Notes under the pieces: model-generated
What the model saw: only the letters and a program-made list of their open reading frames with translations
The model's database searches: none
Told to the model about the DNA's origin: nothing
IMG/VR virus record: IMGVR_UViG_2744054627_000004
Reading direction: 5' to 3' (one strand)
Source of the DNA: a virus
Lineage: Duplodnaviria > Heunggongvirae > Uroviricota > Caudoviricetes
Length of the DNA stretch: 19,912 nucleotides
Shown here: positions 1-19,306 of the stretch, one piece after another
How the letters are laid out: each line of letters opens with the position of its first letter
Numbering within the stretch: the stretch's first letter is position 1
Program-made: the position numbers and the translations under genes

Positions 1-31
1 TTTTCCTTGCCATAGACACCATCCCTGTCTT

Positions 32-58
32 CCCCCACATGATGTGGGGGGTTTTTTT
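32..58 (+). terminator. Rho-independent terminator-like hairpin in the host-side flank
   Basis: Perfect 9-bp inverted repeat CCCCCACAT (32-40) / ATGTGGGGG (42-50) followed by TTTTTTT (52-58). Confidence 0.55.
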
Positions 59-142
59 ATCAAATACTTACATGCAATCAAAAGTAAAACAGTTACTTAT
101 CGAAAGCTGTAAGGGTTTGGAGCGGTTTTAAAATTTCTTGAG

Positions 143-163
143 TGTGGACACTATGTGGACACT
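143..163. other. attL P'-arm: two direct TGTGGACACT repeats, putative Int arm-type binding sites
   Basis: Direct repeats at 143-152 and 154-163 (11-bp period), 14 nt beyond the int stop; contains the TGTGGACA motif that I recall as the P2 Int arm-site consensus. Confidence 0.5.
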
Positions 164-176
164 CAGAGGGGGAAAT

Positions 177-1157
177 TTATAACGTCACTCCGCCTTTTAG
201 TGGATTCAGAGCGACGGCATTTTGCAGATAGTCAGGCGCAAGGTGCGCATAGGCCATCGTCTGCTGAATGCTCGCATGTCCCAGAATCTGTTGCAGTGCG
301 ATTATATTGCCACCATTCATCATGAAATGGCTTGCGAATGTATGCCGCAGGATGTGGGTTGCCTGATTGGGTGGTATATCAGGTTTCACTCTGCGTAAAA
401 TCCCGCAAAATTTCTCATAATCAACTTTGAATAATTTGGCGCTGGCCTCCTCTTTAACTTTTTTCTCCAGTTCCTCAGAAATCGGCACGGTTCGCTTTTT
501 ACCGTTTTTGGTTTTCAGGAAGGTAACCCTGCAATTTGTAATCTGTGCTGGTTTTAGCGTGGCAACTTCCGTCCATCTTCCTCCAGTGCTCAGACATAAA
601 AGCGCGACAAGTAAGTCATCACCAGCCAAAACATTTAACAGTTTTTCGATTTCTGCTTTTTCCAGGAACGTCATTTCAGGGTTGGCCTCCGCCAGTGGCG
701 GCAGTCCGTGAATTGGGTGTTGCCCGGAAAATTCATCCAATTGAATTAATTTTGTGAACATGCCGGATAATCTGTACATGTCACGGTTTATCGTTGCGGC
801 ACTGATACCATCACGTAGTCGCATGGAACGATAATCCATCAAAGCCCTTTTACTCATCCTGCTCACTGGTATATCACCTATGCCGCTGATGGTTTTGAGT
901 AGATGATTAAACTCTTTTGTTCCATGATCGTGGTTTTGCCCGTGATATTTCCACCAGATGTCCAGCAACTCACTCAAAGTCCGGCGGTCTGCTCGCTGGC
1001 CTCCCCATTCTTTCTGACTGGCATTGGCGATTGTGTATCGCTCAAATGCTAGTGCTTCAGCTTTTCTTTCGAATTTCCTGCGGATGCGTTTTCCGTCGCG
1101 ACCGCGAGGTCTAATGTCCACTTCATAGCGACCATCATCGAGCTTCTTAATTGCCAT
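177..1157 (-). CDS. int: Tyrosine integrase, P2 Int-like
   Basis: Listed ORF 177..1187; likely true start is the Met of MAIKKLDDGRYEV at 1157, preceded by GGAGG. C-terminal catalytic region HILRHTFASHF ... LGHASIQQTMAYAHL is typical of tyrosine recombinases. Confidence 0.9.
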   Translation of the reverse strand: MAIKKLDDGRYEVDIRPRGRDGKRIRRKFERKAEALAFERYTIANASQKEWGGQRADRRTLSELLDIWWKYHGQNHDHGTKEFNHLLKTISGIGDIPVSRMSKRALMDYRSMRLRDGISAATINRDMYRLSGMFTKLIQLDEFSGQHPIHGLPPLAEANPEMTFLEKAEIEKLLNVLAGDDLLVALLCLSTGGRWTEVATLKPAQITNCRVTFLKTKNGKKRTVPISEELEKKVKEEASAKLFKVDYEKFCGILRRVKPDIPPNQATHILRHTFASHFMMNGGNIIALQQILGHASIQQTMAYAHLAPDYLQNAVALNPLKGGVTL

Positions 1158-1226
1158 AAGAAAGCCCTCCGGCGCTGTATTCACCATCTTGGTAGCAAAT
1201 GGTGAAAATGTAATCTTTATATAGAG

Positions 1227-1519
1227 TTAGCCAATCCTTTTCGCGGAGTGGTTGGACTCTGTTGACTCTGGCCCAATGTGCGCGAGAGCCGGTGCGATTT
1301 GTCCTGCGTCCGGCGCGGTTTTATCTGTCATAAGCCATAGAGCATATTTTTGGAATGTGGGATGCATAGTGATTTTTAGCAAAGCTGTGCCACCGGGTTC
1401 AAAGTTTCCTCCTTCATATTTTTAAGTGTGCTTAGCGGTAACTCTATGATTTCACAGAATTTTGATTGGCTTAGCCCTTCAGCCTCACGCAAGGCCTTAA
1501 TCTTTTCGCTTAATTTCAT
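1227..1519 (-). CDS. C: Immunity repressor C (P2 C-like), interrupted by an apparent 1-nt frameshift
   Basis: Manual translation: ATG at 1519 gives MKLSEKIKALREAEGLSQSKFCEIIELPLSTLKNMKEETLNPVAQLC, stop at 1375-1377. The shifted frame continues ...KYALWLMTDKTAPDAGQIAPALAHIGPESTESNHSAKRIG to a stop at 1227-1229. Span is 293 nt, one short of a multiple of 3. Divergent from cox as in P2. Confidence 0.7.
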
Positions 1520-1640
1520 TTGACATGGTGCCTATATAGGGACTAAATTCCCTCAAAACTGGAACCTATATAGGTTCCATTGATTTGAGAATAAACCAGC
1601 GTCTAAACGGTTTTGAGTGGTTTAGAAAGAGCTGGATCCT
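1520..1640. promoter_or_regulatory. Immunity/early switch region (Pc/Pe promoters and operators) between C and cox
   Basis: TTGACA at 1520-1525; palindrome CCTATATAGG at 1531-1540; perfect 18-bp palindrome GGAACCTATATAGGTTCC at 1561-1578; related CCATATATGG at 1650-1659 over the cox start. Confidence 0.55.
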
Positions 1641-1928
1641 ATGAGGGTACCATATATGGACGCTGAAAATTATGTGATTCAGTATCCGCTTGATGCGGTT
1701 CATGTGGATAAATTTGCTGATTTATTAGGGAAGCCAAAGACAGCCGTCAGTGAAATGGTGAAGGCAAATAAATTACCAATTATTGAATTGCGTGATCCTT
1801 GCAAACCGAAGGCTCGTGCCGGTGAAAAATGGGTTTTCATTCCTGAGTTTAATCGCGCTGTACGTGAGGCGTTTTATAACCGACCGGTTGAACAGCGTGA
1901 TGCATGGCTTTTGTGGATGGGGTTGTGA
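1641..1928 (+). CDS. cox: Cox-like excisionase / early-switch regulator
   Basis: 95-aa ORF with P2 Cox-like features (...KLPIIELRDP...RAGEKWVFIPEFN...RDAWLLWMGL). Alternative start at 1656 (MDAENY) has a better GAGGG RBS. Stop at 1926-1928. Confidence 0.8.
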   Translation: MRVPYMDAENYVIQYPLDAVHVDKFADLLGKPKTAVSEMVKANKLPIIELRDPCKPKARAGEKWVFIPEFNRAVREAFYNRPVEQRDAWLLWMGL

Positions 1929-1930
1929 TT

Positions 1931-2101
1931 ATGAATGAGCCGCGTTGTATTGCTCAGTTATTGCGTAACGAAAGCCCCAGGGCGATTGACTTCACCATCA
2001 CCCACGGTAAGGGGCGTAAGGGAATCATTATCCGCACCAAAAAACAGAGTCCGTTAAAGAAGGCTCTGACCTTTCTGAAAAGCCGGAGGGTCTGGAAATG
2101 A
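1931..2101 (+). CDS. Small early hypothetical protein (position of P2 orf78)
   Basis: ATG at 1931 right after the cox stop; 56 aa (MNEPRCIAQLLRNESPRAIDF...); the listed ORF 1904..2101 is in the same frame. Confidence 0.5.
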   Translation: MNEPRCIAQLLRNESPRAIDFTITHGKGRKGIIIRTKKQSPLKKALTFLKSRRVWK

Positions 2102-2596
2102 CAGTGATGACGCTCAATCTCGTCGAAAAACAGCCAGCAGCTATGCGCCGGATAATTGGTAAGCATCTTGCCGTCCCTCGTTGGCAGGATACATGTGATT
2201 ATTATAATCAGATGATGGAGCGCGAACGGCTAACAGTTTGCTTTCATGCGCAGTTAAAACAACGTCACGCAACGATGCGTTTTGAAGAAATGAACGACGT
2301 CGAACGTGAACGGCTGGTTTGTGCAATTGATGAATTGCGTGGGGCATTCTCAAAACGCCGTCAGGTTGGCGCAAGTGAGTATGCATATATTAGTTTTTAA
2401 CAGTCAGTCAGCGTCGTACTTTATTTATGCATGCCGGATTGACTGAAAAGAATTCAATCAGCCATACTGGCGAATTAATGAAGAGTCATGTTACTGGCGT
2501 GATGCTTTATTCCGTGCATTACGTGAACTATTCAGTCTGTTTGAGTATGCACCGACAATTCTGACGTCGGTAAAACCAGAGCAATATTTGCATTAA
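2098..2596 (+). CDS. B: Replication gene B-like protein, two apparent homopolymer frameshifts
   Basis: ATGA-coupled start at 2098. The 100-aa ORF ends at 2400 inside a T5 run (2394-2398); the reading continues in other frames (MHAGLTEK then EFNQPYWRINEESCYWRDALFRALRELFSLFEYAPTILTSVKPEQYLH) to a stop at 2594-2596. Total about 166 aa, matching P2 B in size and position. Confidence 0.6.
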
Positions 2597-2657
2597 ATAA
2601 TTAACCAGAGTTTTTAACGCACTTAATCGTGCGGGCTTCTTTTGCCTGGAGAAAGTC

Positions 2658-2882
2658 ATGCATACAGTTTCTGAAAATCAGTGCGGTAAATACGCATTAC
2701 TGCTGCAACAGGCCAGAACCGAAGCACAGGCCGACGCTGCGACGCGCTTTTCTTCTCATCTTGACGCCATGATTCGCCATATCACAAAGGCGGAGTTATC
2801 CCGCGTGGAGATAGTCGAGCTGCTCAGTCAGGAGTCGGAAAAATTTCACAATATCGGATTGTCTCGCGGGGAGGTGCTTTGA
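2658..2882 (+). CDS. Hypothetical early protein (position of P2 orf80)
   Basis: 74-aa ORF with RBS GGAGAAAGTC upstream of the ATG. Confidence 0.6.
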
Positions 2883-3181
2883 TGTCCTGTTCTCATTCAG
2901 TTGTATTACTGAATAACGCCTTAAAAATCGCCGTTATGAAAAATGGCGATTTGTCTCTTATTCAACTTTGTCTTGATAAAGAAAAACGCGACATCACTGA
3001 ATCTGTTATCGCGATTTATCAGAATGAATTAAACCTCCTGTCTGATGTGGTCAATTTACTTGTTAAACGCGCTGTATTCCACAAGCAAATTTCCTCAGTG
3101 GATGAACTGACAAAATTAACGACAGAACTTGCCAGTTATTGCGCTGATGTATCCAGGAAACTTAACGATAAAAGGAGCTGA
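2879..3181 (+). CDS. Hypothetical early protein (position of P2 orf81)
   Basis: 100-aa ORF, ATGA overlap with the preceding ORF. Confidence 0.6.
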
Positions 3182-3183
3182 TA

Positions 3184-3408
3184 ATGCCGGACAACGTAGA
3201 TTTTATTCAGGAACAACAGGCTGAATTACTGGAGCGCCAGATTAACGCGGCAAGGGTAAAACATTGCGGTGCTTCTGCGCTGGTTTGCGAAGAGTGTGAC
3301 GCGCCAATACCTGCTGCCCGTCGTGCGGCTTATCCGTCAGCCACGCGTTGTGTTTCCTGTCAGTCAGTCTTTGAAGCAAAAAACAAACATTACCGGAGAA
3401 CGGCATGA
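3184..3408 (+). CDS. TraR/DksA-family C4 zinc-finger protein (position of P2 orf82)
   Basis: 74-aa ORF with AGGAG RBS; paired Cys motifs CEECD ... CVSCQ. Confidence 0.75.
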   Translation: MPDNVDFIQEQQAELLERQINAARVKHCGASALVCEECDAPIPAARRAAYPSATRCVSCQSVFEAKNKHYRRTA

Positions 3409-3679
3409 GTATTCGTATTGAAATTGGCGAACGTTATGTCGTTACCAGTGACAGCTTCCAGTTTATTCTCCACGAGAAAAGAGAGCGGAAAGCGGTAAAA
3501 ACGCCGGTCAGGAATGGCTGGCGGTGGTTGGTTATTACCCGAAATTAAGCCAGCTCGTTTCCGGCCTGATGCATCACGATATTCTGACCGGAAGCGCAAA
3601 GTCTTTTGCTGATTTAAACGCGCAGGTTGAGCAACTCAGCAAGCGTTGTTCAGAGGCTTTTGGCTCATATGGCCGTTAA
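3405..3679 (+). CDS. Hypothetical protein (position of P2 orf83), apparent A-run frameshift
   Basis: ATGA-coupled start at 3405 (MSIRIEIGERYVVTSDSFQFILHEKRERKAVK...). The frame breaks at the A5 run in GTAAAAACG and continues QEWLAVVGYYPKLSQLVSGLMHHDILTGSAKSFADLNAQVEQLSKRCSEAFGSYGR to a stop at 3677-3679. Confidence 0.55.
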
Positions 3680-5934
3680 AGCCTCCGGGCGTTTTGTCCC
3701 TCCGTCAGCATTTGCTGCAGGCACCGGTAAGGCGTTTACCGGTGCTTATGCATGGAACGCGCCACGCGAGGCTGTCGGGCGCGAAAGACCCCTTACACGT
3801 GACGAGATGCGTCAGGTGCAAGGTGTTTTATCCACGATTAACCGCCTGCCTTACTTTTTGCGCTCGCTGTTTACGTCACGCTATGACTACATCCGGCGCA
3901 ATAAAAGCCCGGTGCACGGGTTTTATTTCCTCACATCCACTTTTCAGCGTCGTTTATGGCCGCGCATTGAGCGTGTGAATCAGCGCCATGAAATGAACAC
4001 CGACGCGTCGATGCTGTTTCTGGCTGAGCGTGACCACTATGCGCGCCTGCCGGGAATGAATGACAAGGAGCTGAAAAAGTTTGCTGCCCGTATCTCATCG
4101 CAGCTTTTCATGATGTATGAGGAACTCAGCGATGCCTGGGTGGATGCGCATGGCGAAAAAGAATCGCTGTTTACGGATGAGGCGCAGGCTCACCTCTATG
4201 GTCATGTTGCTGGCGCTGCACGTGCTTTCAATATTTCCCCTCTCTACTGGAAAAATACCGTAAAGGACAGATGACCACGAGGCAGGCATATTCTGCCATT
4301 GCCCGTCTGTTTAACGATGAGTGGTGGATTAGTCAGCTTAAAGGCCAGCGTATGCGCTGGCATGAGGCGTTACTGATTGCTGTCGGGGAGGTCAATAAAG
4401 ACCGTTCTCCTTATGCCAGTAAACATGCCATTCGTGATGTGCGTGCACGCCGCCAGGCAAATCTGGAATTTCTTAAATCGTGTGATCTCGAAAACAGGGA
4501 AACAGGCGAGCGCATCGACCTTATCAGTAAGGTGATGGGCAGTATTTCTAATCCTGAAATTCGCCGGATGGAGCTGATGAACACCATTGCCGGTATTGAG
4601 CGTTACGCCGCCGCAGAAGGTGATGTGGGGATGTTTATCACGCTGACCGCGCCGTCAAAGTATCACCCGACACGTCAGGTTGGAAAAGGCGAAAGTAAAA
4701 CCGTCCAGCTAAATCACGGCTGGAACGATGAGGCATTTAATCCAAAGGATGCGCAGCGTTATCTCTGCCGTATCTGGAGCCTGATGCGCACGGCATTCAA
4801 GGATAATGATTTACAGGTCTACGGTTTGCGAGTCGTCGAGCCACACCACGACGGAACGCCGCACTGGCATATGATGCTTTTTTGTAATCCACGCCAGCGT
4901 AACCAGATTATCGAAATCATGCGTCGCTACGCGCTCAAAGAGGATGGCGACGAAAGAGGAGCTGCGCGAAACCGTTTTCAGGCAAAACATCTTAATCGGG
5001 GCGGTGCTGCGGGGTATATCGCGAAATACATCTCAAAAATATCGACGGCTATGCACTGGATGGGCAGCTCGATAACGATACCGGCAGACCGCTGAAAGAC
5101 ACTGCAGCGGCTGTTACCGCATGGGCGTCAACGTGGCGTATCCCGCAATTTAAAACGGTTGGTCTGCCGACAATGGGGGCTTACCGTGAACTACGCAAAT
5201 TGCCTCGCGGCGTCAGCATTGCTGATGAGTTTGACGAGCGCGTCGAGGCTGCACGCGCCGCTGCAGACAGTGGTGATTTTGCGTTGTATATCAGCGCGCA
5301 GGGCGGGGCAAATGTCCCGCGCGATTGTCAGACTGTCAGGGTCGCCCGTAGCCCGTCGGATGACGTTAACGAGTACGAGGAAGAAGTCGAGAGAGTGGTC
5401 GGCATTTACGCGCCGCATCTCGGCGCGCGTCATATTCATATCACCAGAACCACGGACTGGCGCATTGTGCCGAAAGTGCCGGTCATTGAGCCTTTGACTT
5501 TAAAAAGCGGCATCGCCGCGCCTCGGAGTCCTGTCAATAACTGTGGAAAGCTTACCGACGGTGATACTTCGTTACCGGCTCCCACACCTTCTGAGCACGC
5601 CGCAGCAGTGCTTAATCTGGTTGATGACGGTGTTATCGAATGGAATGAGCCAGAGGTCGTGAGGGCGCTCAGAGGTGCATTAAAACACGAACTGAGAACA
5701 CCAAATCGTCAGCAGAGAAACGGAAGCCCGTTAAAACCACATGAAATAGCGCCATCGGCCAGACTGACCCGGTCGGAACGAACGCAAATTACCCGTATCC
5801 GCGTTGACCTTGCTCAGAACGGTATCAGGCCGCAGCGATGGGAGCTTGAGGCGCTGGCGCGTGGGGCAACAGTAAATTATGACGGGAAAAAATTCACGTA
5901 TCCGGTCACTGATGAGTGGCCGGGATTCATATAA
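3669..5934 (+). CDS. A: Replication initiation endonuclease A (rolling-circle HUH nickase), two apparent A-run frameshifts
   Basis: Three listed ORFs (3627..4274, 4271..5095, 5173..5934) in three frames join into one protein of about 755 aa. HUH motif PHWHMMLF and tyrosine pair YIAKYISK are present. Breaks are at A5 runs 4251-4255 and 5047-5051. Likely start is MAVKASGRF at 3669. Confidence 0.88.
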
Positions 5935-6212
5935 ACTGAAATGAACAGCGTTGCAAGTGTGATAAAAATCATTATACTGTTTTTATATACAGCACCTTGA
6001 TCTGGAAAGATGCTATAAATGTATATTTCTATAAAAATATATGGTTTATTGATTGTGTATGCTCACTATCAAATTTATACTCCGCGCGCAATGTTGAGTA
6101 TGCTTAAGATATAGCGTTTACAATTCCAGGCTTGAAGGCTCGGGTATAGGTAAAAATTGAGTGTTCTCGGTTGCTTTTCGTGACATAAGAGGACAGCAAA
6201 GGAGGTTGAGTA

Positions 6213-6682
6213 TGTACAGCCCATTGAACATCGCGAATAAGTTTATAGAACTTGCTTGCGCGGCTGGTATGCCAATCACCCAGATGCAGGCACAAAAGCT
6301 GACCTATATAGCACATGGTATAAATCTGGGTTACAAAGGGACGCCTTTGTTAACGACACCAGTTTGTGCATGGCGTTATGGTCCAGTGGTTCCAGTTCTG
6401 TATAACCATCTTAAAGTTTATGGCCGTAGTCCCATAACACAACCAATACAAGTTCCATCGGCAATTTCTCAGGAGTTTGACCCTATGACTGAGCAGTTGC
6501 TGCAGAACGTTTATAACGTTTACGGTAAATATACCGCTGAGGATTTATCTGCTTTCACACATCGTGAAGGTACTCCTTGGAAGCAAGCAATGGATAGTCG
6601 TATGGATATCATTCCTGATTCCGTTATTCAGGATTACTATCAAAAGCTGCTACACGGCGATAGCAATTGCATCGGACTATGA
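6213..6682 (+). CDS. Panacea-domain (DUF4065 / GepA / PanA-like) protein, putative antitoxin-type component
   Basis: 156-aa ORF with strong RBS AAGGAGG 6 nt upstream of the ATG at 6213 (listed ORF starts earlier, at 6161, in the same frame). Signature KLTYIAHG...AWRYGPVVPVLY...YG...THREGTPW resembles what I recall of DUF4065; not checked by HMM. Confidence 0.6.
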
Positions 6683-6696
6683 GTCCGAATTAAGAT

Positions 6697-6722
6697 AACC
6701 CCGTCTATGTACGGGGTTTTTT
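6697..6722 (+). terminator. Intrinsic terminator between the Panacea-like gene and the next ORF
   Basis: Stem ACCCCGT (6698-6704) / ACGGGGT (6711-6717), loop CTATGT, then a T6 tract (6717-6722) that runs directly into the ATG at 6723. Confidence 0.6.
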
Positions 6723-7106
6723 ATGCCTGACGATAATAAGAAAGTGACAGCTGAATTTGATAAAGACCTTCTCAGACGATTGCAGCAAGCTGAGCAGAAT
6801 CTGATAACTGCCTCTGCGGCTTTGGGAGATGAGGGCTGTTGGGATGAAGAATCTCATGAGCCTGAGTCTGTTGAGGACGCTGTTGATGAAATGCAAAAGG
6901 AAGAAGAGGATGCTGCGACCATGCAGCGTTTGGATTTATCCAGTCTTAATTTTCAAATTGCTGAATTGAGTCGCTGTGTTGAAACTATAAGCACTAACCT
7001 TGAAAGCGTACAGGCAGAAACCAAAAGAAAAATGCGGAAACCGACGGCCTGCTTACGGACAATGAGCTCCGTAGAACTATGGCTGATAAAACATATCAAT
7101 TCATGA
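6723..7106 (+). CDS. Acidic, coiled-coil-like hypothetical protein (127 aa as read)
   Basis: Listed ORF; very D/E-rich central segment (DEGCWDEESHEPESVEDAVDEMQKEEEDAATMQ). The 3' end may be frameshifted into the downstream TM ORF at the A5 run 7029-7033. Confidence 0.5.
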   Translation: MPDDNKKVTAEFDKDLLRRLQQAEQNLITASAALGDEGCWDEESHEPESVEDAVDEMQKEEEDAATMQRLDLSSLNFQIAELSRCVETISTNLESVQAETKRKMRKPTACLRTMSSVELWLIKHINS

Positions 7107-7165
7107 TTGTTTGGTGTTGTTTTGTCGGCTGGGTCATATTTATGTATGTATTGAAAAAGATTTGA
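7103..7165 (+). CDS. Tiny hydrophobic single-TM peptide (20 aa; 28 aa if started at ATG 7079)
   Basis: Manual translation MIVWCCFVGWVIFMYVLKKI; ATGA overlap with the stop of the 127-aa ORF; not in the ORF track because under 60 aa. Confidence 0.35.
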   Translation: MIVWCCFVGWVIFMYVLKKI

Positions 7166-7193
7166 TCCACCAGAAACAATTATCATTGCGCTT

Positions 7194-7292
7194 ATGGGAA
7201 CCACAACTGTGAGTATTGTGGGATTGGTTGGGTTTGTTGTTAGTGGTTTGTTCAAAAGCAACAATAAACCTTCTGGCGACAATAAAAATTAA
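7194..7292 (+). CDS. Tiny hydrophobic single-TM peptide (32 aa)
   Basis: Manual translation MGTTTVSIVGLVGFVVSGLFKSNNKPSGDNKN. The same frame is open upstream (KRFDPPETIIIAL...), so it may be the second TM helix of one frameshifted two-TM protein. Confidence 0.3.
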   Translation: MGTTTVSIVGLVGFVVSGLFKSNNKPSGDNKN

Positions 7293-7300
7293 TCATCAAA

Positions 7301-7327
7301 GTGGCACCTTTGGGTGCTATTTTTTTG
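7301..7327 (+). terminator. Intrinsic terminator closing the cargo module
   Basis: Stem GGCACC (7303-7308) / GGTGCT (7313-7318), loop TTTG, followed by ATTTTTTT. Confidence 0.6.
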
Positions 7328-7477
7328 CTTTTTCCGCGATTTCACTGTTTTTTCCGTGCATCATGTGATGCATGAGTTTGAATGTGCTTTAGTCGAGCTC
7401 ACTTGCTTTCTGCTGCCAATGCTAGCTAGGTTTGACGGTGTTCATGCAACTGCATTAAACCGACCATGAAGCGGGCG

Positions 7478-7494
7478 GGCGAGGCGGAAAGCAC
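7478..7494. other. cos: cos site (cohesive-end sequence) of the P2-like phage
   Basis: GGCGAGGCGGAAAGCAC matches my recollection of the P2 19-nt cohesive end GGCGAGGCGGGGAAAGCAC except for a shorter G run; it sits between the cargo and Q as in P2 prophages. Confidence 0.65.
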
Positions 7495-7662
7495 TGCGCG
7501 CTGGCGGTGGTGCTGATTTTATTTTTTCGGCGTCTCAGCGCGTCGTGATGGCGTTTAGATTGTGTGCCGGGGCGTCGGTGTGTCTGCGGGCTGTTTTGCG
7601 TGGAGGTGAGCGTGTGAGGGCGTGATGACGGGGTGTAAAAAGCCGCCCGCAGGCGGCGATGT

Positions 7663-8692
7663 TCAGCCGTTGTCAGTGTCCAGTGAGTAGTTTTTAAAGC
7701 GGATGACCTCCTGACCGAGCCAGCCGTTTATCTCGCGGATCCTGTCCTGTAGCGGGATAAGCTCATTGCGGACAAAGACCTTTGCCACTTTCTCAATATC
7801 ACCCAACGACCCGACGTTCTCCGGCTTGCCGCCCATCAACTGAAAGGGGATGCGGTGCGCGTCCAGCAGGTCAGCGGCGCTGGCTTTTTGATATTAAAAA
7901 ATCGTCCTTCGTTGCCACTTCACTGAGCGGGATAATTTTAATGCCGTCGACTTTCCCTGCGGGGCATAGAGAAACAGATTTTTAAAGTTGTTGCGGCCTT
8001 TCGACTTCACCATGTTTTCGCGAAGCATTTCGATATCGTTGCGATTCTGCACGGCATCAGTGACGTACATGATGTATCCGGCATGTGCGCCGTTTTCGTA
8101 ATACTTGCGGCGAAACAGCGTGGCCGACTCATTCAGCCAGGCAGAATTAAGGGCGCTGAGATATTCCGGCAGGCCGTACAGCTCCTGATTAATATCCGGC
8201 TCCAGCAGGTGAAACACGGAGCCGGGCGTGAAGGCTGTCGGCTCGTTGAAGGACGGCACCCACCAGTAAACATCCTCTTCCACACCACGGCGGGTATATT
8301 TTGCCGGTGAGGTTTCCAGTCTGATGACCTTACCGGTGGTGCTGTATCGCTTTTCCAGAAACGCATTACCGAACACCAGAAAATCCAGCACAAAGCGGCT
8401 GAAATCCTGTTGCGAAAGCCACGGGTGCGGGATAAACGTTGAAGCCAGAATATTGCGTTTGACGTAAATCGGTGAGCTGTGATGCACGGCAGCACGCAGG
8501 CTTTTGCCAGACCGGTAAAGCTGACCGGTGGCTCATACCATCTGCCGTTACTGATGCACTCGACGTAATCCAGAATGTCACGGCGGTCGAGTACCGGCAC
8601 CGGCTCACCAAAGGTGAATGCTCCATTTTCGGGGCGCTGGCGGTCATTGTTTTTGCCGCAGGTTGCGGTGTTTTCCCTTTTTTCTTGCTCAT
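7663..8692 (-). CDS. Q: Portal protein Q, multiple apparent frameshifts
   Basis: Start [19 protein letters not shown] at 8692; listed fragments 8366..8692, 8133..8600 and 7894..8487 lie in different frames; C-terminus ...EVIRFKNYSLDTDNG ends at 7663. Span 1030 nt against about 1035 expected. Confidence 0.85.
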
Positions 8693-10458
8693 CAGTAAAA
8701 CTCCAGAATGGTGGATGTCAGCGGAGTGCTGATACCGGCGGTGAGTGGCTCATTTAACAGGGCGTGCATGGTCGCCCAGGCGAGGTCGGCGTGGCTGGCT
8801 TCCTCGCTGCGGCTGGCCTCATAGGTGGCGCTGCGTCCGCTGCTGGTCATGGTCTTGCGGATAGCCATAAACGAGCTGGTGATGTCGGTGGCGCTGACGT
8901 CATATTCCAGACAGCCACGACGGATAACGTCTTTTGCCTTGAGCACCATTGCGGTTTTCATTTCCGGCGTGTAGCGGATATCGCGCGCGGCGGGATAGAA
9001 CGAGCGCACGAGCTGGAACACGCCGACACCGAGGCCGGTGGCATCAATCCCGATGTATTCAACGTTGTATTTTTCGGTGAGTTTGCGGATGGATTCCGCC
9101 TGGGTGGCAAAGTCCATGCCTTTCCACTGGTGACGCTCAAGTATTCTGAATTTGCCACCGGCCACCACCGGCGGTGCCAGTACCACGCATCCGGCGCTGT
9201 CGCCACGGTGTGACGGGTCGTAACCAATCCATACCGGACGTGAGCCGAACGGATTGGCGGCAAACGGCGCATAGTCTTCCCATTCTTCCAGCGTGTCGAC
9301 CATGCAGCGTTGCAGCTCCTCGAACGGGAACACCGACGCCTTGTCGTCAACAAATTCACACATGAACAGGTTTTTAAAATCGTCGGCGCTGTTTTCACGT
9401 TTGAGCTGCTCAATGTCGAACAGTGTGCAGCCGCCTTTCAGGGCATCCTCAATGGTGACAATCTGCCGCCACTGGCCGTCCGCACAGAGAAGACCTCCGG
9501 CAAGGGCGTTATGACTGACGTCGATTTCCACACGTTCGGCTGCGCTGGCGCGTCCCCGGTTGAACAGTTCACCCGACCAGAACGGGTAGGCGTCGTGCGC
9601 CAGCGTGGACGGGGTGGAGAAATAGGTCGAACGCAGGTGACTCTGTGAGGCCATACCTGATGCCACCTTACGCAGTACCTGAAAATTCGGGATCCAGAAA
9701 ATCTCGTCGACGTACAGGTCGCCGTTATGGCTCTGCGCGGTGTTGGAGTTGGTGCCGAGAAAATCAGTTTTGCGCCGTTATTGCCCAGGACAATCGGGTC
9801 ACCGGTCAGGTCAACGTCAACCAGCCGGGCAAAGGCGATGATGTATTCGCGGAACACATACGCCTGCGTTTTACTGGCCGACAGAAAAATCTGGTTATGA
9901 CCGGTTTTCAGGGCGCGCAGCAGCGCCTCGCGGGAAAATAAAACGTCGCGCCAATCTGGCGGGATTTCAGGATATCGCGGATGCGGTGCTCAAGCCCGGC
10001 GCGATACCAGTGCAACTGATAGTCGAAAGACTGCTCAAAGAAAATCTGCTCCAGCTTTTCGATGGCCTCGTCACTGAAAAATTCTTTTCGGTTTGCGACG
10101 CCCGCCTTTGTTGCGGTTAGCGATGTTCGGATTAAGGTCTGCCTCGTTGCCGGTCTGGCTGTAGCGGTTTACCCGTGCCAGTCGTTCAATCTGGCGTCCG
10201 AGCAGGTCAATTTCCTTGAAGTCACCGCCGGTTTTCTGCGGTTTGATGATGAGCTGGATCAGCCGCGCTTCCAGACTCATTTCGACACGGCTGATGGGGG
10301 CAACACTGTCCCAGCCGTCGCGCTGTTTCCAGCTCTGCACCGTCGGGCGTTTCATCTGCAACATGGCGGCAATCTGCGGCACGGAAACCCTGCCAGTACA
10401 GCAGCGCCGCCTGACGACGCGGGTCGTGTAAAAGAGTGGTGTCTGTGGTGATGGTCAT
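8692..10458 (-). CDS. P: Terminase large subunit (ATPase) P, multiple apparent frameshifts
   Basis: Start [25 protein letters not shown] at 10458 with a GAGG RBS; fragments 10222..10488, 10071..10382, 9438..9857 and 8692..9666 in different frames. Example break: plus-strand A4 run 9760-9763. Confidence 0.85.
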
Positions 10459-10631
10459 GAATACCTCGCCGTGATGAATACACGGCAAGGCTACTGAGTC
10501 GCGCCCCGCGATTCGCTAAGGTGCTGTTGTGTCAGTGATAAGCCATCCGGGACTGATGGCGGAGGATGCGCATCGTCGGGAAACTGATGCCGACATGTGA
10601 CTCCTCTAATCACTATTCAGGACTCCTGACA

Positions 10632-11485
10632 ATGGCAAAAAAAGTCTCAAAATTCTTTCGTATCGGCGTTGAGGGTGACACCTGTGACGGGCGTGTCATC
10701 AGTGCGCAGGATATTCAGGAAATGGCCGAAACCTTTGACCCGCGAGTCTATGGTTGCCGCATTAACCTGGAACATCTGCGCGGCATCCTGCCTGACGGTA
10801 TTTTTAAGCGTTATGGCGATGTGGCCGAACTGAAGGCCGAAAAGATTGACGATGATTCGGCGCTGAAAGGCAAATGGGCGCTGTTTGCGAAAATCACCCC
10901 GACCGATGACCTTATCGCGATGAACAAGGCCGCGCAGAAGGTCTACACCTCAATGGAAATTCAGCCGAACTTTGCCAACACCGGCAAATGTTATCTGGTG
11001 GGGCTGGCCGTCACCGATGACCCGGCAAGCCTCGGCACGGAATACCTGGAATTCTGCCGCACGGCAAAACACAACCCCCTGAACCGCTTCAAATTAAGCC
11101 CTGAAAACCTGATTTCAGTGGCAACGCCTGTTGAGCTGGAATTTGAAGACCTGCCTGAAACCGTGTTCACCGCCCTGACCGAAAAGGTGAAATCCATTTT
11201 TGGCCGCAAACAGGCCAGCGATGATGCCCGTCTGAATGACGTGCATGAAGCGGTGACCGCTGTTGCTGAACATGTGCAGGAAAAACTGAGCGCCACTGAG
11301 CAGCGCATCGAAGAAATGGAAACCGCCTTTTCTGCACTTAAGCAGGAGATGACTGACAAGGCGGATGAAACCAGCCAGGCATTCAGCCGCCTGAAAACAG
11401 TCTCGACCACACCGAAAGTCTGACCCAGCAGCGCCGCAGCAAGGCCACCGGCGGTGGCGGTGACGCCCTGATGACGAACTGCTGA
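10632..11485 (+). CDS. O: Capsid scaffolding protein O, frameshift near the 3' end
   Basis: Listed ORF 10566..11423; likely start MAKKVSKFFRIGVEG at 10632. The A4 run 11394-11397 truncates the reading; the shifted frame continues ...LTQQRRSKATGGGGDALMTNC to a stop at 11483-11485. Confidence 0.85.
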
Positions 11486-11543
11486 CCGGCGTCAGCCAGT
11501 CCGGGAAAACCTTCACGATTAACCCTTAATTTCAGGAAAAACT

Positions 11544-12616
11544 ATGCGCCAGGAAACCCGCTTTAAATTTAATGCCTACCTGTCCCGTGTTGCCGAACTG
11601 AACGGCATCGACGCCGGTGATGTGTCGAAAAAATTCACCGTTGAACCGTCGGTCACCCAGACCCTGATGAACACCATGCAGGAGTCCTCTGACTTTCTGA
11701 CCCGCATCAACATTGTGCCGGTCAGCGAAATGAAAGGGGAAAAAATTGGTATTGGTGTCACCGGCTCCATCGCCAGCACCACCGACACCGCCGGTGGCAC
11801 CGAGCGTCAGCCGAAGGACTTCTCGAAGCTGGCGTCAAACAAGTACGAATGCGACCAGATTAACTTCGATTTTTATATCCGCTACAAAACGCTGGACCTG
11901 TGGGCGCGTTATCAGGATTTCCAGCTCCGTATCCGTAACGCCATTATCAAACGCCAGTCCCTTGATTTCATCATGGCCGGTTTTAACGGTGTGAAGCGTG
12001 CCGAAACCTCTGACCGCAACAGTAATCCGATGTTGCAGGATGTGGCGGTCGGCTGGCTGCAGAAATACCGCAATGAAGCCCGGCGCGCGTGATGAGCAAG
12101 GTCACTGACGAGGAAGGCCATACCACCTCTGAGGTTATCCGCGTGGGTAAGGGCGGTGATTATGCCAGCCTCGATGCACTGGTGATGGATGCGACCAACA
12201 ACCTGATTGAGCCGTGGTATCAGGAAGACCCTGACCTTGTGGTGATTGTGGGACGTCAGCTACTGGCGGACAAGTATTTCCCCATCGTTAACAAGGAGCA
12301 GGATAACAGCGAAATGCTGGCCGCTGACGTCATCATCAGCCAGAAACGCATCGGTAACCTGCCGGCGGTGCGCGTCCCGTACTTCCCGGCAGATGCGATG
12401 CTCATCACGAAGCTGGAAAACCTGTCCGTCTACTACATGGATGACAGCCATCGCCGCGTGATTGAGGAAAACCCGAAACTCGACCGCGTGGAGAACTACG
12501 AGTCAATGAACATTGATTACGTGGTGGAAGACTACGCCGCCGGTTGTCTGGTGGAAAAAATCAAGGTCGGTGATTTCTCCACACCGGCTAAGGCGACCGC
12601 AGAGCCGGGAGCGTAA
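11544..12616 (+). CDS. N: Major capsid protein N, one apparent frameshift
   Basis: ORFs 11544..12092 and 12089..12616 join to about 357 aa; break at the C3 run 12079-12081. Confidence 0.88.
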
Positions 12617-12619
12617 CCG

Positions 12620-13407
12620 ATGACGAGTCCCGCACAGCGCCACATGATGCGGGTCTCGGCAGCGATGACCGCGCAGCGGGAAGCCGCCCCGCTGCGACAT
12701 GCAACTGTCTATGAGCAGATGCTGGTTAAGCTCGCCGCAGACCAGCGCACACTGAAAGCGATTTATTCAAAAGAGCTTAAGGCCGCGAAAAGCGCGAACT
12801 GCTGCCGTTCTGGTTGCCGTGGGTGAACGGTGTGCTGGAGCAGGGCAAAGGTGCACAGGATGACATTCTGATGACGGTCATGCTGTGGCGTCTGGATACC
12901 GGCGATATTGCCGGTGCGCTGGAGATTGCCCGTTATGCCCTGAAGTACGGTCTGACCATGCCGGGTAAACACCGCCGTACCCGCCGTACATGTTCACCGA
13001 GGAGGTGGCGCTTGCGGCCATGCGCGCTCACGCTGCCGGTGAATCCGTGGATACCCGCCTGCTGACGGAGACCCTTGAACTGACCGCCACGGCAGACATG
13101 CCTGATGAAGTGCGCGCAAAGCTGCACAAATTACCGGTCTGTTTCTGCGTGACGCTGGTGATGCTGCAGGGGCACTGGCGCACCTGCAACGTGCGACACA
13201 GCTCGACTGTCAGGCAGGCGTCAAAAAGAGATTGAACGACTGGAGCGGGAGCTGAAACCGAAGCCGGAGCCGCAGCCCAAAGCAGCGACCCGCGCCCCGC
13301 GTAAGACCCGGAGCGTGACACCGGCAAAACGTGGACGCCCGAAAAAAGAAAAGCCAGTTAACAACCCCCGAATGCGCCCCGCGCCAGGGCGGCACGCCGG
13401 TCAGTGA
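12620..13407 (+). CDS. M: Terminase small (endonuclease) subunit M, multiple apparent frameshifts; 3' end uncertain
   Basis: Fragments 12620..12826, 12814..13065 and 12990..13235 plus a further frame ending at 13405-13407; N-terminus MTSPAQRHMMRVSAAMTAQREA. Confidence 0.75.
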
Positions 13408-13463
13408 GGGTGAATCACCTGACACTGCACCGGCGTCCACCGCCCGACTTTTCAGAGGTAGTC

Positions 13464-13970
13464 ATGATGACGCTGATTATTCCGCGAAAGGAGGCTCCCG
13501 TGTCCGGTGAGGGTACGGTGGTCATCCCGCAACCGGCAGGCGATGAGCCGGTGATTAAAACACGTTCTTTTTCCCGATATCGACCCGAAGCGCGTCCGGG
13601 AACGTATGCGCCTTGAGCAGACCGTCGCCCCCGCCCGTCTGCGTGAGGCCATCAAGTCAGGCATGGCGGAAACAAATGCGGAGCTGTACGAGTACCGCGA
13701 ACAGAAAATTGCCGCCGGTTTTACGCGTCTGGCGGACGTTCCGGCGGACGACATCGACGGTGAAAGTATCAAAGTTTTTACTACGAGCGCGCCGTGTGTG
13801 CGATGGCGACCGCGTCGCTTTATGAGCGTTATCGCGGCGTGGATGCCAGTGCGAAAGGCGACAAGAAGGCTGACAGCATTGACAGCACCATTGATGAACT
13901 GTGGCGGGATATGCGCTGGGCGGTGGCGCGTATCCAGGACAAGCCGCGCTGCATCGTGAGTCAAATCTGA
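13464..13970 (+). CDS. L: Head completion/stabilisation protein L, apparent frameshifts
   Basis: Start MMTLIIPRKEAPVSGEG at 13464 with a GAGG RBS; continues in ORF 13606..13959 (MRLEQTVAPARLREAIKSG...) and a third frame ending ...RCIVSQI at 13968-13970. Confidence 0.8.
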
Positions 13971-14173
13971 TGAAGACCTTTGCGCTACAGGGCGACACGC
14001 TCGACGCCATTTGTGTCCGGTATTACGGGCGCACTGAGGGCGTGGTTGAGACCGTGCTCGCCGCAAATCCGGGACTGGCTGAACTGGGTGCGGTGCTGCC
14101 ACACGGCACCGCCGTCGAACTGCCCGACGTTCAGACCGCGCCCGTGGCTGAAACTGTCAATCTGTGGGAGTAA
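13970..14173 (+). CDS. X: Tail protein X
   Basis: MKTFALQGDTLDAICVRYYGRTEGVVETVLAANPGLAEL... (67 aa); the ATG overlaps the L stop; stop at 14171-14173. Confidence 0.85.
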   Translation: MKTFALQGDTLDAICVRYYGRTEGVVETVLAANPGLAELGAVLPHGTAVELPDVQTAPVAETVNLWE

Positions 14174-14176
14174 CGC

Positions 14177-14457
14177 ATGACAGCAGAAGAAAAAGCGTCC
14201 TGTCGCTTTTCATGATTGGGGTGCTGATTGTTGTCGGCAAGGTGCTTGCCGGTGGTGAACCCATCACCCCGCGTCTGTTTATCGGGCGCATGTTGCTCGG
14301 TGGTTTTGTCTCGATGGTTGCCGGTGTTGTTCTGGTGCAGTTTCCTGACCTGTCACTGCCTGCGGTGTGCGGTATCGGCTCCATGCTGGGTATCGCCGGT
14401 TATCAGGTGATTGAGATTGCCATTCAGCGCCGTTTTAAGGGCAGGGGGAAACAGTAA
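14177..14457 (+). CDS. Y: Holin Y, apparent A-run frameshift near the 5' end
   Basis: ATG at 14177 (MTAEEK...); break in the A5 run 14190-14194; continues as listed ORF 14164..14457 (SVLSLFMIGVLIVVGKVLAGG...), a multi-TM protein. Confidence 0.85.
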
Positions 14458-14952
14458 TGCCGGTAATTAACACGCATCAGAATATCGCGGCCTTTCTCGA
14501 CATGCTGGCCGTGTCAGAAGGGACGGCGAATCATCCGCTGACGAAAAACCGGGGCTATGACGTGATAGTCACCGGACTGGACGGGAAGCCGGAAATTTTC
14601 ACTGACTACAGTGACCACCCGTTTGCGCATGGCCGACCGGCGAAGGTGTTTAATCGTCGCGGTGAAAAATCCACGGCCTCCGGTCGCTATCAGCAGCTTT
14701 ACCTGTTCTGGCCGCACTATCGCAAACAGCTTGCCCTGCCGGATTTCAGTCCGTTGTCACAGGACAGACTCGCCATTCAGTTGATCCGCGAACGCGGTGC
14801 ACTGGATGACATCCGGGCGGGACGCATTGAGCGCGCCATTTCACGCTGTCGCAATATCTGGCGTCCCTGCCGGGTGCCGGTTACGGTCAGCGTGAGCATT
14901 CACTGGAAAACTGGTCACCGTCTGGCGTACCGCTGGCGGCGTACCGGCTTAA
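14457..14952 (+). CDS. K: Endolysin K, two apparent frameshifts in the 3' part
   Basis: MPVINTHQNIAAFLDMLAVSEGTANHPL...; the listed 253-aa ORF is an artefactual read-through. Reconstructed C-terminus ...KLVTVWRTAGGVPA ends at 14950-14952. Confidence 0.85.
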
Positions 14953-14966
14953 ACGGAGTAAACACC

Positions 14967-15451
14967 ATGAAGAAATTATCCCTTTCACTGATGCTGAACG
15001 TGTCGCTGGCGCTGATGCTGGCACTGTCCCTGATTTACCCGCAGAGCGTGGCTGTCAATTTTGTCGCCGCCTGGGCGATTCTGGCGACGGTTATCTGTGT
15101 GGTTGCCGGTGGTGTCGGGGTGTATGCCACTGAGTATGTGCTGGAACGCTACGGGCGGGAACTGCCGCCGGAATCGCTGGCCGTGAAGATTGTCACGTCG
15201 CTGTTTTGCAGCCGGTGACGTGGTGCAGGCGGGCGGTGGGTCTGGTGGTGATGGTGGTGACGTTTATCTCGCTGGTCGCTGCCGGGTGGATTTTTACCGC
15301 GCTGATTTATCTTGTGGCGTCGCTGTTTTTCCGGCTGATACGTAAAGCCTGTCGTCAGCGTCTTGAGGGCGGGAACCATGTCAAAGCTGATGATTGTGCT
15401 GGTCGTGTTGTTATCGCTGGCGGTGACAGGTCTGTTTCTGGCGAAGCATGA
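14967..15451 (+). CDS. lysA: Lysis accessory membrane protein LysA, apparent T-run frameshift; 3' end uncertain
   Basis: ATG at 14967 with a GGAG RBS; MKKLSLSLMLNVSLALMLALSLIYPQ... (multi-TM); continues in ORF 15206..15451 after a break near 15195-15205. Confidence 0.75.
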
Positions 15452-15802
15452 AAACGCCAGCCTGCGCGCCTCGCTGGACAGGGCGAACAACGTCGCCAGC
15501 GGTCAGCAGACGACCATCACCATGCTGAAAATCAGCTTCATGTTGCCATCACCAGGGCAGACAAAAACGAGCTGGCGCAGGTGGCACTGCGTCAGGAGCT
15601 GGAGAACGCCGCGAAGCGTGAAGCACAGCGCGAGAAAACCATCACGAGGTTACTTAATGAAAACGAAGATTTTCGCCGCTGGTACGGTGCTGACCTGCCT
15701 GATGCTGTGCGCCGGTTGCACCAGCGCCCGGCCTGCGCCGACGCCAGTGATTGTCCACAACGCCTGCCCGAAAGTGAGCCTTTGCCCGATGCCGGGCAGT
15801 GA
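15378..15802 (+). CDS. lysB: Rz-like spanin LysB, one apparent A-run frameshift
   Basis: MSKLMIVLVVLLSLAVTGLFLAKHENASLRASLD... (N-terminal TM); break at the A4 run near 15525-15530; continues ...ALRQELENAAKREAQREKTITRLLNENEDFRRWYGADLPDA to a stop at 15800-15802. Confidence 0.8.
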
Positions 15803-15947
15803 CCCGGAGACGAACGGCGATTTAAGTGCCGATATCCGGCAGCTTGAGAACGCGCTGGCACGCTGTGCCAGCCAGGTAAAAATGATTAAACACTGTCAGG
15901 AAGAAAACGATGCTCAAACCCGACAGCCTGCGCAGGGCGCTGACTGA
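15657..15947 (+). CDS. lysC: Rz1-like outer-membrane lipoprotein LysC, embedded in and overlapping the 3' end of lysB
   Basis: MKTKIFAAGTVLTCLMLCAGCTSARPAP...: signal peptide with lipobox LCAGC, Pro-rich mature part. Confidence 0.75.
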   Translation: MKTKIFAAGTVLTCLMLCAGCTSARPAPTPVIVHNACPKVSLCPMPGSDPETNGDLSADIRQLENALARCASQVKMIKHCQEENDAQTRQPAQGAD

Positions 15948-16376
15948 TGCCGTCACGGTGCTGAAAACTAACCCCGATATGCTGCGGATATTCGTGGATA
16001 ACGGGAGTATTGCCTCCACACTGGCGGCGTCGTTGTCATTCGAAAAGCGTTACACGCTCAATGTCATTGTGACCGACTTTACCGGTGATTTTGACCTGCT
16101 CATCGTGCCGGTGCTGGCGTGGCTGCGGGAAATCAGCCCGACATCATGACCACCGACGAAGGCCAGAAAAAGGGCTTCACGTTTTATGCGGACATCAACA
16201 ATGACAGCAGCTTTGATATCAGTATCAGCCTGATGCTGACCGAACGCACGCTGGTCAGTGAGGTGGGCGGCGCGCTGCATGTGAAGAATATCCCGGAACC
16301 CCCGCCGCCGGAGCCGGTCACCCGCCCGATGGAGCTTTATATCAATGGCGAACTGGTGAGTAAGTGGGATGAATGA
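15910..16376 (+). CDS. R: Tail completion protein R, one apparent frameshift
   Basis: ORFs 15910..16149 and 16119..16376 join to about 155 aa; break at GGGAAATC near 16128. Confidence 0.85.
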
Positions 16377-16818
16377 GTTTAAGCGTTTTGAAGACCGGCT
16401 GACCGGGCTGATTGAATCGCTGTCACCGTCAGGGCGTCGGCGACTGAGCGCCGAACTGGCGAAACGTCTGCGTCAGAGTCAGCAGCGTCGGGTGATGGCA
16501 CAGAAAGCCCCGGACGGCACCCCCTACGCGCCACGTAAGCAGCAGAGCGCCAGAAAAAGACCGGTCGCGTTAAGCGAAAATGTTTGCGAAACTTATCACC
16601 AGTCGTTTTTGCATATCCGCGCCAGCCCTGAACAGGCAGCAATGGAGTTTTACGGCGGGAAGTCACCGAAAATCGCCAGTGTGCATCAGTTCGGTCTGTC
16701 GGAAGAAACCCGGAAAGACGGTAAGAAAATTGATTATCCGGCGCGTCCTCTGCTCGGCTTTACCGGTGAGGATGTGCAGATGATTGAAGAGATTATTCTG
16801 GCTCACCTCGACCGTTAG
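16369..16818 (+). CDS. S: Tail completion protein S
   Basis: 149-aa ORF overlapping the R stop (ATGAATGA). Confidence 0.85.
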   Translation: MNEFKRFEDRLTGLIESLSPSGRRRLSAELAKRLRQSQQRRVMAQKAPDGTPYAPRKQQSARKRPVALSENVCETYHQSFLHIRASPEQAAMEFYGGKSPKIASVHQFGLSEETRKDGKKIDYPARPLLGFTGEDVQMIEEIILAHLDR

Positions 16819-16884
16819 TTGTGCCATTCCTGACACCTCATCGTCACATTGCCGCCGGTATGACCCGGCGGCATCCTTCCCGTT

Positions 16885-17550
16885 ATGAACACTCTCGCAA
16901 ATATTCAGGAACTCGCGCGCGCACTGCGCAACATGATCCGCACCGGCATTATCGTCGAAACCGACCTTAACGCCGGTCGCTGCCGTGTGCAGACCGGCGG
17001 CATGTGCACTGACTGGCTGCAGTGGCTGACCCATCGCGCCGGGCGTTCGCGCACATGGTGGGCACCTTCCGTGGGGGAACAGGTGCTGATTCTGTCCGTG
17101 GGCGGTGAACTCGACACGGCGTTTGTTCTGCCGGGGATTTATTCCGGCGATAATCCCGCGCCGTCTGCGTCGGCGGATGCCCTGCATATCCGTTTCCCTG
17201 ACGGGGCGGTGATTGAGTATGAACCCGAAACCAGTGCACTTACGGTAAGCGGAATTAAAACGGCCAGCGTGACGGCTTCTGATTCTGTTACTGCCACGGT
17301 GCCGGTGGTCATGGTGAAAGCATCAACCCGCGTCACCCTGGACACACCGGAGGTGGTCTGCACCAACAGGCTGATTACCGGCACGCTGGAAGTGCAGAAG
17401 GGCGGGACGATGCGCGGCAACATTGAACACACCGGCGGTGAACTCTCATCAAACGGTAAGGTACTGCATACCCATAAACACCCCGGCGACAGTGGCGGCA
17501 CAACAGGGGACCTCTATGACAGCGCGTTATCTCGGAATGAATCGCAGTGA
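16885..17550 (+). CDS. V: Baseplate assembly / spike protein V; probable frameshift near the 3' end
   Basis: 221-aa ORF as read; an alternative frame stops at 17517-19, overlapping the W ATG. Confidence 0.85.
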   Translation: MNTLANIQELARALRNMIRTGIIVETDLNAGRCRVQTGGMCTDWLQWLTHRAGRSRTWWAPSVGEQVLILSVGGELDTAFVLPGIYSGDNPAPSASADALHIRFPDGAVIEYEPETSALTVSGIKTASVTASDSVTATVPVVMVKASTRVTLDTPEVVCTNRLITGTLEVQKGGTMRGNIEHTGGELSSNGKVLHTHKHPGDSGGTTGDLYDSALSRNESQ

Positions 17551-17863
17551 TGGCCTGACTGTCACTGACCTTGAGCATATCAGCCAGAGTATCGGCGATA
17601 TCCTGCGCACACCGGTCGGCTCACGGGTGATGCGTCGTGATTACGGCTCGTTGCTGGCGTCAATGATTGACCAGCCGCAGACCCCGGCGCTTGAGTTGCA
17701 GATTAAAGTCGCCTGTTACATGGCAGTGCTGAAATGGGAACCCCGCGTCACCCTGTCATCCGTCACCACGGCGCGCAGTTTTGACGGGCGAATGACGGTC
17801 ACGTTAACCGGCCAGCACAACGACACCGGCCAGCCACTTTCGTTAACCATCCCTGTGAGGTGA
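17516..17863 (+). CDS. W: Baseplate wedge protein W (GPW/gp25-like)
   Basis: MTARYLGMNRSDGLTVTDLEHISQSIGDILRTPVGSRVMRRDYGS... (115 aa); the listed ORF 17423..17863 starts upstream in the same frame. Confidence 0.85.
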   Translation: MTARYLGMNRSDGLTVTDLEHISQSIGDILRTPVGSRVMRRDYGSLLASMIDQPQTPALELQIKVACYMAVLKWEPRVTLSSVTTARSFDGRMTVTLTGQHNDTGQPLSLTIPVR

Positions 17864-17867
17864 AATC

Positions 17868-19300: not shown

Positions 19301-19306
19301 GGAATA

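Follow-up and report, generated by a model that had tools for sequence, protein, structure and literature searches.

Where does host chromosome give way to phage DNA at this locus, and which sequences at the boundary would the phage integrase use? The window, by which we mean the whole 19,912-nt stretch of DNA that was analysed, begins with 176 nucleotides that lie beyond the 3′ end of an integrase gene read on the minus strand. A preliminary description had taken this end for the attL of a P2-family prophage, probably inserted just downstream of a host gene, and had put the junction near 95–125. The identity of the element holds and its neighbour can now be named: we conclude with high confidence that positions 1–176 are the attL (B-O-P′) of a prophage that belongs to the P2 family (Peduovirus) and has the integration specificity of the WPhi/L-413C class, lying between cpxP, which is the host gene in question, and fieF. 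As an attachment site it is the known attL of the WPhi/L-413C class and has already been described; it is a further example of a recombination module whose characteristics are well established, in which arm sites of P2 type go with the WPhi core. To this the present analysis makes two modest additions, namely that the attachment core coincides with CpxQ, a small RNA discovered later, and that the crossover can be assigned, from natural SNPs, to the 27 bp at the left of that core.

The boundaries follow from a megablast comparison of the left window end with 5,426 complete E. coli genomes and with the phages in GenBank. Free phages, among them L-413C, WPhi, FSLSP004, P2_AC1 and R18C, match from base 15 rightward through int at 94–99% identity, and bases 1–14 are without a match in any of the phage genomes. 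About 4,600 of the E. coli genomes match bases 1–61 only, and 794 of the 5,426 match the whole of 1–176. Since phage homology starts at 15 and homology to empty chromosomes ends at 61, the common core (O) is the 47 bp from 15 to 61, GACACCATCCCTGTCTTCCCCCACATGATGTGGGGG(T/G)TTTTTTTATC, which is common to attB, attP, attL and attR. To its left, bases 1–14 (plus strand) are the host B arm, which belongs to the cpxP 3′UTR and the 5′ part of CpxQ and is matched in empty E. coli sites. When attL, attR, attB and attP are compared by anchoring them to each other, they show the BOP′, POB′, BOB′ and POP′ relationships of the textbook. The length of 47 bp was obtained here independently, from the homology boundaries; a 2006 study of WPhi integration (J Bacteriol) reportedly gave 47 nt of identity. 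The core of the window is identical at 46 of 47 positions to the attP core of WPhi and L-413C, and the sole difference is G51 of the window, where every other attL, attR, attB and attP copy that we examined has T. WPhi and L-413C have been described as identical in their attP cores and as having one and the same site in E. coli (PMC3448106, Nilsson et al.), and the WPhi prophage of E. coli W has been placed at cpxP-fieF (PMC3032704).

The surrounding chromosome fits this arrangement. At an empty K-12-like locus (L001) 10 nt separate the cpxP stop codon from the base that corresponds to window position 1, the core begins 24 nt past that stop codon and fieF is next. In the lysogens Yu5 and CUVM3 the order is cpxP, prophage, fieF, and each prophage end carries the same 47 bp. 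Among complete genomes the closest relative is CUVM3, which is collinear with the window over 1–19200 and has a prophage of 29.6 kb flanked by identical core copies. The 47-mer occurs once in the 19.9-kb window, and the attR of the source genome itself must therefore lie beyond the right end; the matching end was read outside the source window, in close relatives (97.6–99.6% identity). There, in Yu5 and CUVM3, attR carries the matching core together with the P-arm repeats, as would be expected if the left end is attL.

Other phages touch the same sequence. SEN4, SEN5, phiT5282H and ESSI2_ev239, from Salmonella, Enterobacter and Escherichia, match only window 16/17–70/72 and have unrelated arms, and it appears from these alignments that the CpxQ attachment core is used by several phage lineages. 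In PhiR44_1 and ENT4, which have other cores, homology to the window begins at about base 56.

The earlier placement of the junction had been guided by GCTGTAAGGG, a motif taken to resemble part of the P2 attP core, and it implied that the crossover lies at about 95–125, with everything to the left, including a terminator hairpin, being host DNA. The 27-bp P2 core, AAAAAATAAGCCCGTGTAAGGGAGATT, had been given correctly, and TGTAAGGG (108–115) is indeed an exact 8-mer of it, in a motif that sits between int and the host gene; GCTGTAAGGG itself lies at 106–115 rather than 107–116, and only the 8-mer within it matches P2. The window contains two copies of the 8-mer, where 0.32 would be expected. 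With about 20 core 8-mers, two strands and a spacer of about 80 bp, however, a hit of this type has a chance probability of about 5%, so that the match is not more than chance would give, and the full 27-bp P2 core has no match anywhere in the window at up to three mismatches. Between the motif and the arm sites there are 28 bp, as opposed to a core-to-arm distance of about 95 bp in P2, and no inverted repeat surrounds the motif. WPhi shares the core and the arm sites and has a 98%-identical Int of the same specificity, yet it reads TATAAGGG at the homologous position. Above all, bases 62–142 are phage-only: they are present in free phages and absent from attR and from empty chromosomes, which match 1–61 only, so that the comparison with unoccupied sites moves the junction away from 95–125, and phage homology runs on down to 15. 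The boundaries at 15 and 61 thus refute a crossover at 95–125, and we give that placement virtually no credence. A relationship of this integration site to that of P2, which had also been suggested, is not borne out, as the two sites share no sequence. The resemblance of TGTAAGGG to the P2 core is, on these alignments, best treated as coincidence. We also considered whether the 8-mer could be a relic of an ancestral P2-type core and rejected this: it is without flanking similarity or an inverted repeat, its distance from the arms is wrong and it is not conserved in WPhi.

Within the 47-bp core the position of strand exchange can be narrowed further, by means of one polymorphic position. Position 42, in the loop of the terminator hairpin, is C in K-12-like hosts and A in the attP of WPhi and of L-413C, both read directly. 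An attP with C in the loop has no exact match in any GenBank phage record, and the exact attP pattern of P arm, core and P′ has no match among IMG/VR viral contigs. In each of the lysogens E308, M217 and Sanji this position is A at attL and C at attR. Exact matches (100% identity) to an attR with loop C are found in at least 30 genomes, and an exact attL with loop C, sought with both common P′ variants, in 0 of 820 lysogen genomes. As attR holds the host allele and attL the phage allele, position 42 travels with the right-hand partner, and strand exchange therefore falls within 15–41, which is the interval containing the overlap region of Int. The mapping covers at least two independent lysogenisations, since M217 and Sanji have one shared prophage lineage and the three lysogens represent at least two prophages with different cargo. 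For annotation this means that the prophage starts within 15–41, not at about 100. The cleavage positions themselves would lie in this interval, and two arrangements of core-type Int sites are candidates: an inverted repeat, GACA-N7-TGTC, at 15–29, or the terminator stem, with the overlap just left of the loop. The SNP at 42 is compatible with both.

What does the host keep at this site? The intrinsic terminator of cpxP/CpxQ lies at 31–58 on the plus strand (terminator scan; RNA fold −18.3 kcal/mol), with a G+C-rich stem of 8–9 bp (32–40/42–50, or 31–51 with a wobble pair), a 3-nt loop and a T-run to 58. The same hairpin directly follows cpxP at empty E. coli sites and is wholly within the 47-bp core. 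The hairpin that had been noted at 32–58 is therefore real, but it is not simply host-side as had been supposed, being inside the core, with its loop and 3′ half derived from the phage in lysogens. It belongs to cpxP/CpxQ and to the phage attachment core alike. CpxQ is an Hfq-dependent sRNA of about 60 nt, processed from the cpxP 3′UTR, comprising nearly the whole UTR and ending at the terminator (PMC9438474; PMC4817254). The end of cpxP 10 nt before base 1 and the terminator at 31–58 fit such a segment of about 60 nt, CpxQ being taken as described in the literature, and judged from this alignment the core is roughly the 3′ three-quarters of CpxQ including the terminator. As strand exchange takes place within 15–41, the loop, the 3′ stem and the U-tract of CpxQ are phage DNA in lysogens. 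The literature searched refers to the site solely by coordinate or as ‘cpxP-fieF’ and contains no paper linking CpxQ to an attachment site; the overlap of the WPhi/L-413C core with CpxQ is a modest point that has apparently gone unremarked before.

The terminator is slightly variable. G51 changes its run from 5 G + 8 T to 6 G + 7 T in the window, and this could be either a real CpxQ terminator variant or a sequencing error at a homopolymer boundary; the attL of E308 also has a 7-T run in the terminator. An Rfam scan gave no family match to CpxQ on the plus strand. On the minus strand, opposite to CpxQ, Hrs1 (RF02628, ‘Hfq-regulated sRNA 1’) matches window 1–58 and L001 2486–2558 at 45.3 and 41.4 bits, below the gathering score of 56.4, and we draw no evidence from this match. 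The Hrs1 model starts with an A-run followed by a hairpin and resembles the reverse complement of the CpxQ terminator, and the family may be mis-stranded.

Could the exchange of CpxQ sequence matter to the host? Lysogeny with a WPhi-class phage, as found in about 15% of complete E. coli genomes, would swap the loop, 3′ stem and U-tract of CpxQ, an sRNA of the envelope stress response, for phage DNA. The phage allele, with A in the loop in place of the K-12-type C and a T-run of variable length, might then measurably alter the abundance, termination or Hfq binding of CpxQ, as might the additional copy of its 3′ part that is linked to the P arm at attR and attP; a phage-expressed CpxQ-like RNA would be another conceivable outcome. 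We regard such an effect as improbable and put it forward as speculation; if it were true, the 47-bp core would be a case of ‘sRNA conversion’, not a neutral landing pad.

On the phage side of the core lies a pair of direct repeats. TGTGGACACT occurs at 143–152 and again at 154–163 (plus strand), 11 bp apart, at exactly the positions first noted for it. The 19.9-kb window contains no further exact copy, against about 0.04 expected by chance, and a pair at 11-bp spacing is far beyond chance. The P2 record NC_001895 has an annotated P′-arm Int site which reads TGTGGACACT-G-TGTGGACACT, that is, the same 10-mers at the same spacing as in the window. The block 143–164 is invariant between the window, L-413C, WPhi and P2 except for the base between the repeats, and its flanks are barely alignable to P2. 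The pair also fits the P2-type arm-site consensus tgTGGaCa (PMC3448106). A second repeat pair, TGTGGACGCT-A-TGTGGACAG, is found on the P arm, in the attR of Yu5 and CUVM3 and in the attP of WPhi and L-413C. That the TGTGGACACT pair represents the P′ arm-type Int site (143–163), as had been proposed, is thus well supported by its homology to the experimentally annotated P2 site, and this Int would be expected to bind it.

The repeats adjoin int, ending 13 nt from its stop codon (TAA, minus strand, 177–179), not 14 nt as first counted, and this proximity raises the question of whether they could serve mainly another purpose, be it regulating int expression or termination or binding Cox. In P2 the repeats even overlap int itself, at the 3′ end of its coding region, where bound Int could also affect int expression. 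Such a main role is nevertheless very unlikely, since P2 has exactly this sequence annotated as the Int-bound P′ arm, the motif recurs as a second pair on the P arm, at a distance from int, as arm sites used in recombination must, and it is retained both in P2, where it falls within the coding sequence, and in the WPhi type, where it does not. Additionally, the Int N-terminal segment that would contact it is nearly identical to that of P2. The repeats are therefore best understood as recombination arm sites, perhaps with a dual role, in recombination and in int expression.

The integrase itself agrees with this assignment. The gene int (177–1157, minus strand) encodes a 326-aa tyrosine integrase of WPhi specificity with the Pfam domains Int_N and Phage_integrase. 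It is 98% identical to WPhi Int over the 326 aa and 52% identical to P2 Int, and its first ~40 residues, the arm-binding part, are those that are nearly the same as in P2 despite the overall divergence. Next to it, collinearity with annotated relatives places the C immunity repressor gene at 1227–1519 on the minus strand, and cox, which encodes a predicted excision directionality factor and switch repressor (Pfam Phage_Cox), is at 1656–1928 on the plus strand.

Between core and arm repeats lies a P′ arm spacer, 62–142, which includes GCTGTAAGGG and is less conserved than its surroundings. Its length is conserved at 81–82 bp, and it is only 64.6% identical to the WPhi spacer, compared with 98% for the core, 100% for the arm sites and 97% for int. 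Cox is 82% identical to WPhi Cox. Since the spacer has diverged together with Cox and has the same position as the Cox footprint of P2, the analysis suggests that 62–142 is the Cox-binding region. A search for Cox-box motifs common to this spacer and the Pc/Pe switch region (1520–1655) returned no shared 10-mers at up to one mismatch, where 0.68 are expected from shuffles. At the boundary of core and P′ arm, TATCAAATACTTA (58–70, plus strand) is a candidate IHF site by its perfect match to the consensus WATCAANNNNTTR; its WPhi homologue is also perfect, and the window, WPhi and L-413C differ here only at the NNNN positions. Another candidate, TATCATCAGGTTA, lies between the P-arm Int sites and the core in the WPhi attP and matches the IHF consensus with one mismatch, the total number of IHF matches being not above chance.

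Is this attL still part of a mobile element? The window could represent a decayed, immobile prophage whose attL is a functionless fossil, and several observations point that way: genes A, P, C and others are split into short ORFs, the prophage that M217 (L009) and Sanji (L010) share at this site is broken by IS21-, IS66- and IS150-family insertions, and ECCWS199 keeps only a remnant, with attL- and attR-type junctions about 1.9 kb apart at the same site (NZ_CP032237.1, 4512357–4514355). We nevertheless consider decay unlikely for the prophage of the window. Its core, arm sites and int (326 aa) are intact, and the collinear genes of CUVM3 are intact throughout. The window has 52 indels relative to L-413C, spread over the whole length (for example at 86, 1419, 2394, 4251, 7637, 9760, 13223 and 18579), and 36 of the 52 are single-base deletions in homopolymers of at least 3. 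Such homopolymer deletions account for the broken reading frames of genes A, P and C, and in the C gene the frameshift comes from a 1-nt deletion of this kind near 1419. Because the collinear CUVM3 prophage is intact, the frameshifts look like long-read assembly error rather than prophage decay, and the same explanation may hold for G51 and for the shortened A-run at 86.

Further into the prophage, the cargo (6161–7300) that separates replication gene A from the portal gene consists of a SocA/Panacea antitoxin-domain protein (PF13274) followed by a DUF2975-type protein. Just 11 of the 5,426 complete E. coli genomes have this cargo, which is probably a toxin-antitoxin or defence pair of PanA type in the P2 variable hotspot. 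Collinearity with CUVM3 ends at about 19200, inside the tail-fibre region, which is the usual variable host-range module (window 19200–19912).

From these elements a recombination mechanism can be proposed. Int would act as a heterobivalent tyrosine recombinase, its N-terminal domain on the TGTGGACACT repeats at 143–163 and its core-binding and catalytic domains on the 47-bp core at 15–61, with strand exchange expected in the left part of the core (15–41). The phage carries an exact core copy, and integration would therefore restore CpxQ and the cpxP terminator intact at attL, with a second core copy left at attR, beside fieF. In excision, Int on the P′ arm repeats would be expected to bridge to the core, probably assisted, as in P2, by Cox on the 81-bp spacer (62–142) and by IHF-induced bends. 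The sequence relationships, the boundaries of the core, the side on which the crossover falls and the identity of the repeats to the annotated P2 Int site were read from the sequences; the binding of Int, Cox and IHF at these places, as well as the exact cleavage positions, we infer.

How does this site compare with the known systems? In P2 the annotated order (NC_001895) is Int P-arm, IHF, core, a 74-bp Cox site and Int P′-arm, and the elements here, the IHF and Cox sites among them being candidates, follow that order in the same general architecture. The P′ 10-mers (TGTGGACACT twice, 11 bp apart) are also shared, the N-terminal segment of Int is near-identical and the P-arm repeats are similar. 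In contrast, the 27-bp P2 core is unrelated, the host site is another one and Int as a whole is only 52% identical. The P′ sites, which in P2 lie inside the int coding sequence, are here 13 nt past the stop.

With lambda the principle is shared, in that the N-terminal domain recognises arm-type sites, the overlap has core-type sites on both sides and accessory bending proteins set directionality (established knowledge and PMC3448106). There is, however, no sequence similarity, and the P1, P2 and P′1-3 sites of lambda contrast with two arm sites per arm here. The directionality factor is Xis in lambda, whereas here it would be Cox, which is also the repressor of the lysis-lysogeny switch.

Much closer is WPhi (Peduovirus Wphi), in which the core (46/47), the P′ repeats (identical), the spacing (81 vs 82 bp), Int (98%) and the host locus are the same. 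The spacer (64.6%) and Cox (82%) differ, which indicates that the regulatory and RDF module is another variant. The closest sequenced phage is the Yersinia phage L-413C, at 97.5% identity over window 15–5928, with the same core and identical arm sites, a spacer at 94% and int at 99%. It differs in the interval from gene A to the portal gene, whose cargo in the window is the Panacea-domain protein with its DUF2975 neighbour, and in its state, L-413C being a free phage (POP′) and the window an integrated one (BOP′).

In its choice of target, the site resembles those of 186 (tRNA-Ile), Fels-2 (ssrA) and the P2-like prophages at the sRNA genes cyaR and rybB (PMC3032704). There too, phage and host are identical over the 3′ end of a non-coding RNA and its terminator, and the crossover is at the 5′ side of the identical block, so that the phage copy restores the gene. 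The target here differs in being CpxQ, which derives from a 3′UTR and is without a promoter of its own. The supply of the CpxQ terminator by the phage in lysogens fits the pattern of prophages rebuilding the 3′ ends of non-coding RNAs, without changing it.
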